Positions 21,519 to 25,922 of a DNA stretch of 64,000 nucleotides are shown here, piece after piece. This DNA comes from Escherichia phage KIT06. Position 1 is the first letter of the stretch. Every line of letters begins with the position of its first letter. Made by a program: the position numbers and the translations under genes. Below the pieces are notes generated by a model. That model did no database searches. It was not told where the DNA came from and saw only the letters and a list, made by a program, of their open reading frames with translations. The stretch lies in the sequence record OQ349392.1. One strand, written 5' to 3'.

Positions 21519-21965
21519 ATGATTACAGTAGATAAGTGGTTTAGAATTAATCGTGCTGATACAGGGCTGTGTAATTATTGGCCGGAACTTAGTGCAGGTA
21601 CTGTCTTTAAAGTTCGTGAACTTACAAAAGAATGCGAAGATGATATAGAACCTGATACTGGAATTATTGAAATTGAACTTTCTGATGGAAAGATTATTAA
21701 CATCTACGATAAGCCAATTACGTATTGGTGCTTATGGAATACTGAATCAGTAGAAAATGGCGAAATTGAAGAGGTCGTAGAACGAGTTGATCAAGCTATT
21801 CATAAACCTAAAGCCGCTTTTCAAGGTGAACGTATTTCATATGCATTAGCTAAATTAGCTGCGCAAGAAAACAACGATGGCTATGAAGGAAATTTGATGC
21901 AAGCTGCGGCAGAATATATTGAATGGCTTGAAACTCAAATTTCTTTTTCTGACCGAGCATTTTAA
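21519..21965 (+). CDS. hypothetical protein (pin/49.x region)
   Basis: 148 aa from ATG 21519 with SD GGAGATGGGA; position corresponds to T4 pin region but identity not verified. Confidence 0.45.
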   Translation: MITVDKWFRINRADTGLCNYWPELSAGTVFKVRELTKECEDDIEPDTGIIEIELSDGKIINIYDKPITYWCLWNTESVENGEIEEVVERVDQAIHKPKAAFQGERISYALAKLAAQENNDGYEGNLMQAAAEYIEWLETQISFSDRAF

Positions 21966-21983
21966 TACTTGAAAATAATAAAT

Positions 21984-22014
21984 ACCCTTATCTATTCAAG
22001 GTAAGGGTTTTATT
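21984..22014 (+). terminator. hairpin plus U-tract immediately upstream of gene 49
   Basis: ACCCTTA ... TAAGGGT 7-bp stem (21984-21990 / 22002-22008) followed by TTTATT; may also regulate gene 49 translation. Confidence 0.5.
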
Positions 22015-22488
22015 ATGTTATTGACTGGCAAATTATACAAAGAAGAAAAACAAAAATTTTATGATGCACAAAACGGTAAATGCTTAATTTGCCAACGAGA
22101 ACTAAATCCTGATGTTCAAGCTAATCACCTTGACCATGACCATGAATTAAATGGACCAAAAGCAGGAAAGGTACGTGGGTTGCTATGTAATCTCTGTAAT
22201 GCTGCAGAAGGTCAAATGAAGCATAAATTCAATCGTTCTGGCTTAAAGGGACAAGGTGTTGATTATCTTGAATGGCTAGAAAATTTACTTACTTATTTAA
22301 AATCCGATTACACCCAAAATAATATTCACCCTAACTTCGTTGGAGATAAATCAAAGGAATTTTCTCGTTTAGGAAAAGAGGAAATGATGGCTGAGATGCT
22401 TCAAAGAGGATTTGAATATAATGAATCTGACACTAAAACACAATTAATAGCTTCATTTAAGAAGCAGCTTAGAAAGAGTTTAAAATGA
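22015..22488 (+). CDS. 49: endonuclease VII (Holliday junction resolvase, gp49)
   Basis: 157 aa, same as T4 gp49; MLLTGKLYKEEKQKFYDAQNGKCLICQRELNP... with Cys4 zinc site and HDH motif. Confidence 0.92.
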   Translation: MLLTGKLYKEEKQKFYDAQNGKCLICQRELNPDVQANHLDHDHELNGPKAGKVRGLLCNLCNAAEGQMKHKFNRSGLKGQGVDYLEWLENLLTYLKSDYTQNNIHPNFVGDKSKEFSRLGKEEMMAEMLQRGFEYNESDTKTQLIASFKKQLRKSLK

Positions 22489-24302
22489 CAATTGAAAAAG
22501 AAATTGAAGGATTGATTCATAAAACTAATAAAGACCTTTTAAACGAGAATGCTAATAAAGATTCTCGTGTTTTTCCAACTCAACGGGACCTTATGGCTGG
22601 TATTGTGTCTAAACACATTGCCAAAAATATGGTCCCGTCTTTTATTATGAAAGCGCATGAAAGCGGAATTATTCATTTCCATGATATTGATTATTCCCCT
22701 GCTCTTCCATTTACTAATTGCTGTTTAGTAGATTTAAAAGGAATGCTTGAGAACGGATTTAAGCTCGGTAATGCACAGATTGAAACTCCTAAATCAATCG
22801 GTGTTGCTACTGCAATTATGGCACAAATTACTGCACAGGTTGCTTCCCATCAATATGGTGGAACGACTTTTGCGAATGTAGATAAAGTACTTTCTCCTTA
22901 TGTTAAACGCACCTATGCAAAACATATTGAGGACGCAGAAAAATGGCAAATCGCTGATGCGTTGAATTATGCCCAATCTAAAACAGAAAAAGATGTATAC
23001 GATGCATTCCAAGCTTATGAATACGAAGTAAATACTCTCTTTAGTTCAAACGGACAAACGCCTTTTGTAACAATTACATTTGGTACGGGAACTGACTGGA
23101 CTGAACGAATGATTCAGAAAGCAATTCTGAAAAATCGTATTAAAGGCCTTGGTCGCGACGGGATAACTCCTATTTTCCCTAAACTTGTTATGTTCGTTGA
23201 AGAAGGTGTTAATCTTTATAAAGACGATCCGAACTATGATATTAAGCAGCTTGCTCTAGAATGTGCAAGTAAAAGAATGTATCCTGACATCATTTCGGCT
23301 AAGAACAATAAAGCTATCACCGGTTCATCTATTCCTGTTTCTCCAATGGGTTGTCGTAGTTTCTTGGGTGTATGGAAAGATTCGACTGGTAATGAAATTC
23401 TTGATGGACGTAATAATCTTGGTGTTGTAACACTGAATCTTCCTCGCATTGCACTAGATTCTTATATTGGAACACAGTTCAATGAACAGAAATTTGCCGA
23501 ATTGTTCAATGAGAGAATGGATTTATGTTTTGAAGCATTGATGTGTAGAATTAGTTCATTAAAAGGAGTTAAAGCTACTGTTGCTCCTATTCTTTACCAA
23601 GAAGGTGCATTCGGGGTTCGTCTTAAACCTGATGACGATATAATTGAGTTATTTAAAAACGGTAGAAGTTCAGTGTCTTTGGGATACATTGGTATTCACG
23701 AATTGAATATTCTTGTCGGTCGTGATATTGGACAAGAAATTTTAACTAAAATGAATGCTCATCTTAAGCAGTGGACTGAAAGAACTGGTTTTGCTTTTAG
23801 TTTGTATTCGACACCTGCTGAAAACCTGTGCTATCGCTTCTGTAAACTTGATACCGAAAAATATGGAAGTGTAAAAGATGTTACCGATAAAGGCTGGTAC
23901 ACTAACAGTTTCCACGTTTCAGTAGAAGAAAATATCACTCCGTTTGAAAAGATTTCTCGTGAAGCACCATATCATTTCATTGCGACAGGTGGTCACATTT
24001 CTTATGTTGAACTTCCTGATATGAAAAATAACCTAAAAGGTCTTGAGGCTGTATGGGATTATGCTGCGCAACATTTAGATTATTTTGGCGTTAACATGCC
24101 AGTAGATAAATGTTTTACGTGTGGAAGTACCCATGAAATGACTCCTACTGAAAACGGATTTGTTTGTTCTATTTGTGGAGAAACTGATCCTAAAAAGATG
24201 AACACAATAAGAAGAACATGCGGATATCTTGGAACTCCTAGCGTTGTTCCATGGAATTTAGGTAAAATGAAAGAAATGGTAAAACGAGTAAAACATGCAT
24301 AG
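22485..24302 (+). CDS. nrdD: anaerobic ribonucleoside-triphosphate reductase NrdD (intronless)
   Basis: Continuous 605-aa ORF; C-terminal zinc ribbon CFTCGS...CSICGE and glycyl-radical region RRTCGYLG; no intron interruption unlike T4. Confidence 0.95.
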   Translation: MTIEKEIEGLIHKTNKDLLNENANKDSRVFPTQRDLMAGIVSKHIAKNMVPSFIMKAHESGIIHFHDIDYSPALPFTNCCLVDLKGMLENGFKLGNAQIETPKSIGVATAIMAQITAQVASHQYGGTTFANVDKVLSPYVKRTYAKHIEDAEKWQIADALNYAQSKTEKDVYDAFQAYEYEVNTLFSSNGQTPFVTITFGTGTDWTERMIQKAILKNRIKGLGRDGITPIFPKLVMFVEEGVNLYKDDPNYDIKQLALECASKRMYPDIISAKNNKAITGSSIPVSPMGCRSFLGVWKDSTGNEILDGRNNLGVVTLNLPRIALDSYIGTQFNEQKFAELFNERMDLCFEALMCRISSLKGVKATVAPILYQEGAFGVRLKPDDDIIELFKNGRSSVSLGYIGIHELNILVGRDIGQEILTKMNAHLKQWTERTGFAFSLYSTPAENLCYRFCKLDTEKYGSVKDVTDKGWYTNSFHVSVEENITPFEKISREAPYHFIATGGHISYVELPDMKNNLKGLEAVWDYAAQHLDYFGVNMPVDKCFTCGSTHEMTPTENGFVCSICGETDPKKMNTIRRTCGYLGTPSVVPWNLGKMKEMVKRVKHA

Positions 24303-25125
24303 GTATTATATAATTTATAAAATAACAAATATAATTAATTCAAAGGAATATATCGGTGCGCATAGCACCGATAACATAAATGACGGTTATATGGGGTCAG
24401 GAACATTGATTCGTGCCGCTTTATTAAAATATGGTAGAAAAAATTTTAATAAAGAAATTTTACATGTTTTTGATAATGAAAAACAAATGTATGATAAAGA
24501 AGCTGAACTCGTAACCGAAGAGTATTGTCTAAAAGAAAATACATATAATATTAAACCTGGTGGAAAAGGTGGAACTGCCTATGAACAGACACTTGAACAT
24601 CGCCGCAAAAATAGTTTAGCAAATAAAGGTAAAAAGAGAACAGAAGAAACTAAAATAGCTATTTCACGTGCTTTAAAGAAATATAAACGTACGCCAGAGC
24701 ATCAAGCAAATTTAAATAAAGCCGTAAGCATAGCTATGAAGCGAAAAGATGTTAGAAGTAAATTAGCTGGAGAGCGGTCTGAGAAAGATAAATTATCTAT
24801 ATCAAACGGTGTTAAAAAATATTACAATTCTTTGAGTGAAGAAGAACGCGAACTTCATCGCAAGCGAATTATTGAAGGTAAAAAGAATTCTCCCATGTCA
24901 TTGGAATCTAGACAAAAGCTTTCAAAAGCTTTAAAAGGACTTCAAGTTGGTTCAAAAAATCCAATGTATGGAAAAATTTCTCCAACTAGCAAAACCGTTT
25001 CAGTTGACGGTATTAAATATGATTCAATTAAAAAGTGCTCAAATGCCATAAAAGTTTCTAGACATCTTATACTAAAACGCTGTAATTCTACTGATGAAGC
25101 TTGGAAAAATTGGATATTATTATGA
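24295..25125 (+). CDS. GIY-YIG homing endonuclease (Seg/Mob-like), free-standing between nrdD and nrdG
   Basis: 276 aa; GIY-YIG motifs YIIYKITN...EYIGAHS...GSG...NTYNIKPGG; repeated NUMOD3-like DNA-binding repeats (KNSLANKGKKRTEETK, SRQKLSKALKG). Confidence 0.85.
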   Translation: MHRYYIIYKITNIINSKEYIGAHSTDNINDGYMGSGTLIRAALLKYGRKNFNKEILHVFDNEKQMYDKEAELVTEEYCLKENTYNIKPGGKGGTAYEQTLEHRRKNSLANKGKKRTEETKIAISRALKKYKRTPEHQANLNKAVSIAMKRKDVRSKLAGERSEKDKLSISNGVKKYYNSLSEEERELHRKRIIEGKKNSPMSLESRQKLSKALKGLQVGSKNPMYGKISPTSKTVSVDGIKYDSIKKCSNAIKVSRHLILKRCNSTDEAWKNWILL

Positions 25126-25592
25126 ATTATGACAGAATATACCCGTGTTGCTTTGTTAACGGTCCTGGGTGCCGAACTGTTCTTTTCGTTACAGGTTGTT
25201 TGCATAAATGTGAAGGGTGTTATAATAAATCAACATGGAATGCTAGAAATGGCGTTCCATTCACTGGTGAAACACTAGAACAATTAATTAAATGTTTGAA
25301 TAATGATTATATAGAAGGATTAACTATAACTGGAGGAGACCCTCTCTATCCAGATAACCGAGATGTTGTTCATTGCATTGTTCAAACAGTAAAAAATCTT
25401 TATCCGAATAAAAGCATTTGGTTGTGGACAGGATATAAGTTTGAAGATATTAAACAACTAGAAATGCTTAAATATGTTGATGTTATTATTGATGGGAAGT
25501 ATGAGAAAAATCTTCCGACCAAAAAGCTGTGGCGAGGTTCAGATAATCAGCGACTTTGGTCAAATACCGATGGGGTGTGGAAACATGATTAA
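25122..25592 (+). CDS. nrdG: anaerobic ribonucleotide reductase activating protein NrdG
   Basis: 156 aa from ATG 25122; radical-SAM-like cysteine motifs CCFVNGPGC and CLHKCEGC. Confidence 0.9.
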   Translation: MNYDRIYPCCFVNGPGCRTVLFVTGCLHKCEGCYNKSTWNARNGVPFTGETLEQLIKCLNNDYIEGLTITGGDPLYPDNRDVVHCIVQTVKNLYPNKSIWLWTGYKFEDIKQLEMLKYVDVIIDGKYEKNLPTKKLWRGSDNQRLWSNTDGVWKHD

Positions 25593-25706
25593 ACTGAATT
25601 ATATTATTGATACTATAAATGATATGATTTTTCATTTTGGTCCAGAATTTTATTCGCAGTATAGTTTAGTACTTATCAATGCTTGGTTAATCAATTAAGG
25701 GTAAAT

Positions 25707-25922
25707 ATGTATAAATTTCGTAAAGGTTTAGCTGATTTTCTTACAACTGTAACATTCTTTTTGTTTATGGCAGTTGGTGCTATTTTTCTTATTCCTTTTA
25801 TTGCTATATTTTTCGTGATTAGCTTAATTTCTCCAGAAAAAGGACTATCTTCTAGCGAGTTCAATGAGCGTCTGGATAAAATTACTAACAAACTGAATGC
25901 TGTTCTTGATAAAAAGGCTTAA
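25707..25922 (+). CDS. hypothetical small membrane protein
   Basis: 71 aa from ATG 25707; one hydrophobic helix FLFMAVGAIFLIPFIAIFFVISLI. Confidence 0.45.
   Translation: MYKFRKGLADFLTTVTFFLFMAVGAIFLIPFIAIFFVISLISPEKGLSSSEFNERLDKITNKLNAVLDKKA

Follow-up and report, generated by a model that had tools for sequence, protein, structure and literature searches.

The segH homing endonuclease gene at the nrdD–nrdG junction of Escherichia phage KIT06 and comparative signatures of its mobility

The locus analysed here lies in a 64,000-nt stretch of the genome of Escherichia phage KIT06 (OQ349392.1), hereafter referred to as the window. Its genes occur in the order gp49, nrdD, segH and nrdG, and the last three are arranged as follows:

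22485..24302, + strand: nrdD, large subunit of the class III (anaerobic) ribonucleotide reductase, 605 aa, uninterrupted (list of open reading frames, Pfam)
24295..25125, + strand: segH, 276 aa, homing endonuclease gene of the GIY-YIG type, free-standing (identical to RB3 segH in nucleotides and amino acids)
25122..25592, + strand: nrdG, NrdD activase (radical SAM), 156 aa (Fer4_12, 3.4e-48)

NrdD matches the Pfam families NRDD (4.8e-171, over residues 21-604) and Gly_radical (6.9e-25), and its gene is 93-97% identical to the exons of T4 nrdD. The reading of nrdD as a single continuous ORF of 605 aa, made in the initial annotation, is borne out by both the ORF list and the raw sequence from 22485 to 24302. 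Equally exact was its placing of a 276-aa GIY-YIG/NUMOD3 ORF that overlaps the nrdD stop (ATG at 24295) as well as the nrdG start (ATGA at 25122). The ATG of this ORF is embedded in the last codons of nrdD (cATGcaTAG), giving an overlap of 8 nt in which the two frames differ, while its TGA shares the sequence ATGA (25122-25125) with the ATG of nrdG.

The middle ORF is identical to segH of phage RB3 (AY262138.2, ABI48949.1) over 276 of 276 amino acids and 819 of 819 nucleotides, and the former record annotates this gene as 'SegH homing endonuclease' between a partial nrdD and nrdG. The product shares 98.2% amino acid identity with SegH of T6, in which the gene order is nrdD, segH, nrdG, and segH is found at the nrdD/nrdG position in the records of LZ2 (AY262139.2), T6 and PP01. 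Additionally, the ORF matches PHROG 314, 'homing endonuclease' (2.4e-60), and its family matches taken together greatly exceed chance level. Judging from these sequence matches, it is very probably segH, the known T-even free-standing GIY-YIG homing endonuclease gene at the nrdD/nrdG junction, so that its presence here is an already known, correct but ordinary finding. Position, overlaps and length are the same as for SegH of RB3, LZ2 and T6, and the gene itself does not differ from that of RB3. On the other hand, nrdD and nrdG on either side of it diverge from those of RB3 by about 5% and from those of T6 by about 3%, so that the window has this cassette in a different Tequatrovirus background. 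Sandegren, Nord and Sjöberg reportedly described SegH in 2005 (Nucleic Acids Res 33:6203), in a paper whose title is said to name it as a free-standing homing endonuclease replacing T4 mobC.

Between 21900 and 25800, no Rfam family, including the group I intron, was found at E ≤ 1; the same search detected Intron_gpI inside nrdD of T4, RPN226 and SYGD1, the SYGD1 intron being missed in Rfam gathering mode and scoring 74 bits in a more sensitive run. As segH moreover lies in another frame than nrdD, with an ATG and stop of its own, it is free-standing and neither intron- nor intein-encoded. These observations bear on an alternative identity, according to which the ORF would be an orthologue of T4 segD or an intron- or intein-borne endonuclease left by a degenerate intron. 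The label 'segD: homing endonuclease' in the genome records of RB3, RB5, RB6, RB7, RB9 and RB10 (KM606994-KM606999) speaks for the former, and a match to the TIGR01453 profile 'group I intron endonuclease' (3.3e-13) for the latter. However, the score of that match, 50.2 bits, is below the cut-off of 56.05 bits, no in-frame fusion joins the ORF to nrdD or nrdG, and RNA families are absent around it at the above threshold. T4 SegD, encoded at T4 coordinates 106588-107181, is only 29.5% identical to the ORF, and the T4 segD locus lies between genes 23 and 24 (PMC2988022). Furthermore, the name segH was given to this same sequence by the laboratory that described SegH. Both a segD identity and an intron or intein origin were consequently rejected on the low identity, the different locus and the lack of an RNA family, and we assign them practically no probability.

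A separate matter is the intron-less state of nrdD, which is explained by an empty I-TevII homing-site allele, as in T2 and T6. Anchored comparison placed the site as follows:

23009..23045, + strand: empty group I intron insertion site, 23022^23023 (TATGAAT^ACGAAG), I-TevII homing-site allele

In this region, the window differs by one base (23024) from the intron-less phages T2, EcNP1 and RB3, whereas in T4 and RPN226, which contain the intron, exon 2 is synonymously changed at +8, +11, +14, +15, +17 and +20. In the 50-nt bin at the intron site, mismatches number 6-8 where the compared phage has the intron and 1-2 where it has none. Occurrence of segH together with the nrdD intron was checked in RPN226, SYGD1 and LH2, and five more matches have the same insertion-sized span. 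Because several relatives have both, the intron and segH are independent elements. Hence the initial proposal that the endonuclease gene stands in nrdD instead of the intron fails, since these three phages possess both and T4 has the intron as well as mobC. That T4 nrdD contains a group I intron is confirmed by Rfam, but the enzyme encoded in it is I-TevII according to the T4 annotation and not, as had been assumed, I-TevIII. In T4, the nrdD intron encodes the GIY-YIG enzyme I-TevII and the nrdB intron the HNH enzyme I-TevIII (Edgell et al. 2010, PMC2988022). Like SegH, I-TevII belongs to the GIY-YIG enzymes and has nrdD as its target (PMC2988022), but it resides within a group I intron, some 1.3 kb on the 5' side of the segH site; this intron is missing from the window, which retains the uncut homing-site allele.

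The SegH protein can be divided into three predicted parts, based on profile matches, an AF2 model and Foldseek:

24295..24573, + strand: GIY-YIG catalytic domain, SegH residues 1-93, with Y8, Y19, G21, E69 and N85 (profile, AF2, Foldseek)
24592..24978, + strand: helical linker, SegH residues ~100-228, with a NUMOD3 repeat at 200-228 (Pfam, AF2)
24970..25113, + strand: C-terminal module similar to the DNA-binding domain of I-TevI, SegH residues 226-273 (Pfam, Foldseek)

The NUMOD3 match (3.1e-8) exceeds the Pfam cut-off, while those to I-TevI_DNA-bd at the C-terminus (3e-4) and to SegE_GIY-YIG (18.6 bits against a cut-off of 25 bits) fall below their curated thresholds. Single-sequence phmmer of SegH against the PDB gave chance-level matches only; with a profile of 31 sequences, the only matches were 1MK0 and 1LN0, both of the catalytic domain of I-TevI. 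The AF2 model has a pLDDT of 82.7 overall and above 90 in residues 1-93, with strands at residues 4-12 and 18-25 and helices between 100 and 213. I-TevI accounts for each of the four best Foldseek matches (catalytic domain, three; DNA-binding domain, one), with a probability of 1.00 for 1MK0 (TM 0.63 over the target), 0.99 for 1LN0 and 0.92 for 1I3J. The modelled fold is thus that of a GIY-YIG α/β domain, and the predicted build is I-TevI-like and two-part, with an N-terminal GIY-YIG nuclease joined through the NUMOD3/helical linker to a C-terminal DNA-binding module. I-TevI, the T4 td intron endonuclease (1MK0, 1LN0, 1I3J), shares this modular build and is the best and sole meaningful match to SegH by profile and fold. 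It differs in being intron-encoded, whereas SegH is free-standing, and the catalytic domains are about 25% identical; the helical linker, which includes the NUMOD3 repeat, is longer in SegH, whose Pfam matches include no zinc-finger family.

The catalytic residues of I-TevI are E75, N90 and R27. The IIY (Y8) and YIG (Y19, G21) motifs of SegH align with Y6, Y17 and G19 of I-TevI, and in the HMM alignment N85 falls on the YN of I-TevI and E69 within one residue of E75. The segment of I-TevI containing R27 is an insertion in the profile alignment; in the next helix SegH has R40, a position taken by K in many homologues and by H in LH2. All 17 columns that are invariant among 31 homologues are conserved in SegH, including Y8, Y19, G21, E69 and N85. 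The full 276-aa frame is open in five of five alleles compared, including those annotated as shorter, and dN/dS values of segH are 0.32, 0.16 and 0.11. By these data the gene is intact and under purifying selection. Mutated catalytic residues, named at the outset as the mark of a pseudogene, were not seen at any position that can be placed.

Comparison with other phages revealed a set of features at and around segH that set it apart from its surroundings:

24192..25147, + strand: zero-mismatch block of 956 nt against RB3, from the nrdD tail through segH to nucleotide 26 of nrdG, the mobile cassette (mismatch count)
24218..24302, + strand: segH-linked recoded 3' end of nrdD, 34 of 85 nt different from T2 (alignments)
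25133..25178, + strand: hypervariable patch near the 5' end of nrdG, linked to segH, with 18 of 46 nt different from T2 (alignments)

Against RB3, the flanks of the block show 71 mismatches in 1394 nt upstream (5.1%) and 22 in 369 nt downstream (6.0%), so that about 50 would be expected within it and none was observed. The ends of the blocks shared with other segH-carrying phages vary, from 24089 to 24251 on the left and from 25148 to 25241 on the right. The recoded 3' end of nrdD is common to all segH-carrying phages examined, and megablast alignments with the nearest genomes that have no segH break off at 24238. At the protein level, the NrdD tail reads TPSVVPWNLGKMKEMVKRVKHA in place of NPNERGFNLGKNKEIMHRVKHQ, the two being of equal length. 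Downstream of the nrdG 5' patch, identity to empty-site alleles is restored. The wider divergence of nrdG from T4 (80%) was also considered as segH-linked and rejected: T2 and EcNP1 match the window beyond approximately position 25178, and the outlier is therefore the mobC-linked nrdG of T4. Taken at the level of sequence comparison, these signatures fit a recent homing of segH. The core of the initial reading, a free-standing GIY-YIG endonuclease with intronless homing near the nrdD-nrdG junction, holds, in agreement with the AY262138.2 annotation, with PMC2988022 and with the mosaic and co-conversion signatures.

A decaying or inactive segH might nevertheless be retained if its deletion were to break translational coupling along nrdD-segH-nrdG. 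The gene overlaps both neighbours, and a clean loss would be constrained because of these two overlaps; in some records, an ORF of 244 aa starting at M33 is the sole annotation, and T4 keeps defunct endonucleases such as I-TevIII (PMC2988022). Besides, a promoter of its own was not found for segH: between 23900 and 25700 neither the T4 late promoter TATAAATA nor a full MotA box occurs, and a generic σ70-like scan returned fewer sites than in shuffled sequence. Set against this reading are the open frame of every allele compared, the low dN/dS and conserved family positions described above, and the RB3-identical block within flanks that differ by about 5%, pointing to recent transfer and not to passive retention. 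We consider such a remnant very unlikely.

With regard to RNA structure, a hairpin over the start codon, as in intron endonucleases, is not present in segH, and the region of the nrdG start is no more stably folded than shuffled sequences (z = +0.60). One hairpin was found inside the codons of the YIG motif:

24351..24373, + strand: perfect 9-bp hairpin, TATCGGTGC-GCATA-GCACCGATA

For a region of 124 nt around it, z = -2.06, and according to the mismatch list the stem is unaltered in LH2, the most divergent segH allele.

The following mechanism is inferred from established knowledge of Seg endonucleases together with the 2005 SegH paper, which reportedly shows site-specific DNA cleavage by SegH near its own locus as well as homing in mixed infections. 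In a mixed infection, SegH would introduce a double-strand break near the nrdD/nrdG junction of a segH-less phage. T4-type recombination-dependent repair would then copy the donor segH with its adjacent flanks into the recipient, turning the empty ATGA junction into nrdD-segH-nrdG and excluding the recipient's local markers. The target probably includes the DNA for the glycyl-radical loop and tail of NrdD, because alleles with and without segH differ systematically there, and do so in two phage genera. Expression of segH is probably low-level, the promoter-less cassette being read from the upstream 49/nrdD transcript. Translation would likely re-initiate at the ATG located 5 nt before the nrdD stop, and nrdG may in turn be coupled to the segH stop through the ATGA.

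At the nrdD/nrdG locus, segH is present in 69-70 phage records, a share of about 9% among those of the Tequatrovirus type, and 32 records have mobC. Of 60 evenly sampled records, 43 have an empty site spanning 1070 bp; in this state, which is that of most records, the stop codon of nrdD overlaps the start codon of nrdG in the sequence ATGA. segH is thus polymorphic for presence or absence at a fixed site, with co-conversion of the flanks. In T4, the annotated order is nrdD-mobC-nrdG, and MobC occupies the same slot, likewise overlapping both neighbours. It is, however, an HNH protein of 210 aa belonging to a nuclease family unrelated to SegH, and its start consists of seven codons duplicated from nrdG, whereas segH starts inside the nrdD tail. 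The activity of MobC is given as ND in a review table (PMC2988022). Phage 235Ecol030PP has a 279-aa HNH gene as a third endonuclease gene at this junction, and the HNH endonucleases showed no similarity to SegH in blastp. One junction between two genes of an essential pathway is used by segH, mobC and the second HNH gene, and so by no fewer than three endonuclease genes that are unrelated, and the same nrdD additionally holds the intron/I-TevII site. The value of the locus lies in its being a clean, annotated example in which the boundaries of the cassette can be read to the nucleotide by comparison.

This patchy distribution also bears on whether an active segH is kept mainly for a benefit to the phage, by excluding nrdD/nrdG alleles of competitors or by regulating the operon, with homing being secondary. 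Seg endonucleases cause marker exclusion (PMC2790892), I-TevI doubles as a repressor of its own transcription (PMC2988022), host promoters can be brought along or displaced by free-standing endonucleases (PMC2988022), and variants of the NrdD tail and the nrdG 5' end travel with segH. Presence in so small a share of the records, on the other hand, looks like a selfish element in flux and not like a selected function. Moreover, a phage benefit overlaps the homing interpretation and does not replace it; as the main reason for the persistence of segH, we regard it as highly unlikely.

Returning to homing and its possible target, the segH-linked variants include synonymous changes in a short stretch of nrdD:

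24210..24233, + strand: codons of the NrdD glycyl-radical loop RRTCGYLG, candidate SegH recognition region (segH-linked synonymous variants)

Here the window reads TGC GGA TAT CTT and empty-site alleles TGT GGT TAT TTG, with mismatches at 24218, 24221, 24224, 24228 and 24230. A parallel is offered by Slopekvirus, in which 19 of 185 records, patchily distributed, contain a SegH-like gene (e.g., Klebsiella phage KLB27). Its product of 283 aa is 47% identical to SegH over 94% of the length. The gene lies directly 3' of nrdD, but is separated from it by a gap of 53 nt, whereas segH overlaps nrdD, and nrdG is located about 2 kb beyond. In Slopekvirus carriers the NrdD tail is diverged, and the glycine loop shows the same synonymous changes as in Tequatrovirus carriers, with GGATATCT in carriers against GG(T/C)TATTT in non-carriers. 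We tentatively propose, while thinking it may well prove incorrect, that SegH-family endonucleases recognise glycyl-radical-loop DNA across genera, that carriers are marked by TGC GGA TAT CTx and a replaced NrdD tail, and that the coupling relay makes segH hard to delete in Tequatrovirus. As for the position of the cleavage site, part of this proposal may already be contained in the 2005 SegH paper. If carriers are protected, TGCGGATATCTTGG DNA would be cut less or not at all; SegH reportedly also cuts the DNA of its own phage, and this weakens the case for carrier protection by the recoded loop and tail.

[quoted passage not shown]

The following genes are encoded at the locus (positions in the window):

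22015-22488, + strand: gp49, endonuclease VII (ORF list, raw sequence)
22485-24302, + strand: nrdD, 605 aa, one uninterrupted frame (ORF list; Pfam NRDD 4.8e-171, Gly_radical 6.9e-25)
24295-25125, + strand: segH, 276 aa (ORF list, raw sequence)
25122-25592, + strand: nrdG, 156 aa (ORF list; Pfam Fer4_12 3.4e-48)

The segH start codon is the ATG within ...AAA CATG CATAG, located 8 nt before the end of nrdD in a different frame, and its stop codon is the TGA of an ATGA at whose ATG nrdG starts. The encoded protein matches NUMOD3 (3.1e-8) as well as I-TevI_DNA-bd (3e-4) and SegE_GIY-YIG (2.4e-3) in Pfam, the latter two being weaker than the cut-offs. It also matches PHROG 314 'homing endonuclease' (2.4e-60) and, slightly below the cut-off, TIGR01453 (3.3e-13). 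An Rfam search of 21900-25800 (E ≤ 1) returned no RNA family, group I introns included. Together with the ORF and Pfam data, this supports as written the layout proposed in the initial annotation: an intronless 605-aa nrdD and a 276-aa GIY-YIG/NUMOD3 ORF overlapping both neighbours.

The middle ORF is the known element SegH; the observation is correct and already known. A megablast search with 22000-25700 matched 996 phage records, of which nearly all are T4-like (Tequatrovirus and relatives) and 68 cover the whole query including segH; a search with segH alone found 70 full-length copies. The gene between nrdD and nrdG is named segH in the T6 and PP01 records. Moreover, window segH is 100.0% identical, in both DNA and protein, to AY262138.2 ('Bacteriophage RB3 NrdD, partial; SegH, complete; NrdG, partial'; product 'SegH homing endonuclease'), of which AY262139.2 is the sister record from LZ2. 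The SegH paper (2005) is reported to describe a GIY-YIG motif in SegH, cleavage near its own locus, cutting of DNA with and without segH, and homing in mixed infections. The window, a Tequatrovirus sequence, has no exact match among deposited genomes, the best showing ~96-97% identity over 25 kb. Annotation of the gene varies: segH is mislabelled segD in RB genome records KM606994-KM606999 (RB3, 5, 6, 7, 9 and 10), product names at the locus in T6 record AP018814 are unrelated to it, and in SYGD1 (MW883059) and LH2 (OQ378934) a 244-aa ORF from Met33, lacking the GIY motif, is annotated though the 276-aa frame is open.

In each of T6, RPN226, RB3, SYGD1 and LH2 this 276-aa frame is uninterrupted, and the products differ from window SegH by 0-13 amino acids; dN/dS values relative to the window allele are 0.32, 0.16 and 0.11. 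When aligned with 30 homologues of as little as ~32% identity, window SegH keeps 17 of 17 invariant positions, including Y8, Y19, G21, E69 and N85. The sole PDB match of the SegH profile is the I-TevI catalytic domain (1MK0, E = 0.012; 1LN0, 0.033), aligning Y8, Y19, G21 and N85 with I-TevI Y6, Y17, G19 and N90, respectively, and placing E69 within one residue of E75, while I-TevI R27 has no confident counterpart. As to mutated catalytic residues, which the initial annotation had named as counting against its proposal, all positions that could be placed are thus intact, R27 standing apart. In an AlphaFold2 model (mean pLDDT 82.7; residues 1-90 above 90), a beta-beta-alpha-beta-alpha N-domain is followed by a long helical region and a small module at the C-terminus. 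I-TevI accounts for the model's top four Foldseek hits, with the catalytic domain matched in three (1MK0 and two chains of 1LN0; probability 1.00-0.99) and the DNA-binding domain in one (1I3J; 0.92). The YIG-motif codons contain a perfect 9-bp hairpin (24351-24373; TATCGGTGC GCATA GCACCGATA), its stem identical in LH2, the most divergent allele; the surrounding 124-nt region has a folding z of -2.06, and no T-run follows the hairpin on the + strand.

Occupancy of the junction was surveyed in an even sample of 60 from the 764 records matching 23700-25592. In 43 of these 60, a 1070-bp span represents an empty site, the nrdD stop overlapping the nrdG start. segH is present in 69-70 records and mobC in 32, and in the T4 record nrdD, whose intron encodes I-TevII, is followed by mobC and then nrdG. 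A third junction gene, found in 235Ecol030PP (L007, 2400-3239), encodes a 279-aa HNH protein that is distantly related to MobC (38% identity over 60 aa). The start of this gene duplicates 13 nrdG codons, that of T4 mobC (L003, 3907-4539) seven (MNYDRIY). Over its first ~300 nt, T4 nrdG shares only ~80% identity with the window (25122-25420), T2, T6 and EcNP1, the last third being nearly identical; mobC in T4 therefore seems to be linked to a long, diverged stretch of nrdG of its own.

The 956 nt of 24192-25147 are free of mismatches to RB3, where ~50 would be expected at the flank rate; 71 occur in the 1394 nt upstream of this block and 22 in the 369 nt after it. Comparison with other segH carriers places the closest mismatches at 24089-24251 on the left side of the gene and at 25148-25241 on the right. 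Relative to empty-site alleles, 34 positions out of 85 are changed in 24218-24302 and 18 out of 46 in 25133-25178, and outside these recoded stretches mismatches fall back to the background level (1-3 per 50 nt); alignments with the closest segH-less genomes end at 24238. The NrdD tail has the same length in both, reading TPSVVPWNLGKMKEMVKRVKHA in the window and NPNERGFNLGKNKEIMHRVKHQ in empty-site alleles. Judging from sequence, such flanks would be expected after double-strand-break repair in which a diverged donor is co-converted. The 9-mer ATGCATAGG at the beginning of segH (24295-24303; M-H-R) is also present within the NrdD tail in empty-site phages (T2, L005, ~2379-2387); there it specifies the M-H-R of ...EIMHRVKHQ, shifted out of register by 16 nt, and may be either left over from the original insertion or due to chance.

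Carriers and empty-site phages first diverge at synonymous positions in the codons for the glycyl-radical loop, which read ACA TGC GGA TAT CTT GGA in the window and all segH carriers versus AC(G/T/A) TGT GGT TAT TTG GGA in T2, EcNP1 and T4. A SegH-like gene follows nrdD in 19 of 185 Slopekvirus-type records, as in Klebsiella phage KLB27 (L010, 2959-3810; 283 aa, 47% identity, 53 nt after nrdD). The loop codons are TGC GGA TAT CTG GGC in Slopekvirus carriers versus TGC GGC TAT TTG GGT in non-carrier KP15 (L011, 1720-1812). These carriers and the window share the same synonymous changes in the glycine-loop codons (GGATATCT), and in both the NrdD tail diverges directly after the loop. This parallel suggests that the SegH family recognizes the DNA encoding the glycine loop, or DNA close to it, as a candidate target, with the caveat that 235Ecol030PP has the carrier-type loop haplotype without segH. 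SegH is also reported to cleave the DNA of its own phage, which speaks against the recoding being protective.

Neither a T4 late promoter nor a MotA box was found in 23900-25700, and a sigma-70-like scan gave fewer sites than shuffled sequence. The segH start codon lies within predicted unstructured AU-rich RNA, and GC content is 31.0% for segH and 36.4% for nrdD. On these features, segH looks like a promoter-less cassette transcribed from the upstream operon. Its translation would involve re-initiation close to the nrdD stop, as also discussed for segC, segF, mobA and mobC (Edgell et al. 2010; PMC2988022). nrdG would be coupled to segH here and directly to nrdD in empty-site phages.

The initial annotation attributed I-TevIII to the T4 nrdD intron and regarded segH as taking its place; both points are wrong. 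According to the T4 record and Edgell et al. (2010; PMC2988022), this intron encodes I-TevII (GIY-YIG), I-TevIII (HNH) belonging to the nrdB intron. The nrdD intron and segH are independent elements, since RPN226, SYGD1 and LH2 carry both. RPN226 has a 1033-nt nrdD insertion that matches the T4 intron at 99.5% identity, and SYGD1 and LH2 have, at the same site, a divergent intron (~68% identity to the T4 intron region) that still scores as group I (74 bits in sensitive Rfam mode; missed by gathering-mode filters). This second intron version, with an I-TevII-like ORF, occurs in SYGD1 (L008, 1147-2310), LH2 (L009) and 235Ecol030PP (L007). The window has an empty intron site (TATGAAT^ACGAAG, 23022/23023) differing by a single base from T2, EcNP1 and RB3, and lacks the six synonymous exon-2 changes of intron-containing alleles. 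As the I-TevII cleavage position is 13-15 nt 3' to the intron insertion point, window nrdD appears to be an ordinary, susceptible allele of the homing site. The BYEP01 (OR757453.1) match to 22000-25700 spans 4045 bp in two pieces, 344 bp longer than the query and of neither intron-less nor full-intron length; it may represent a partly deleted nrdD insertion.
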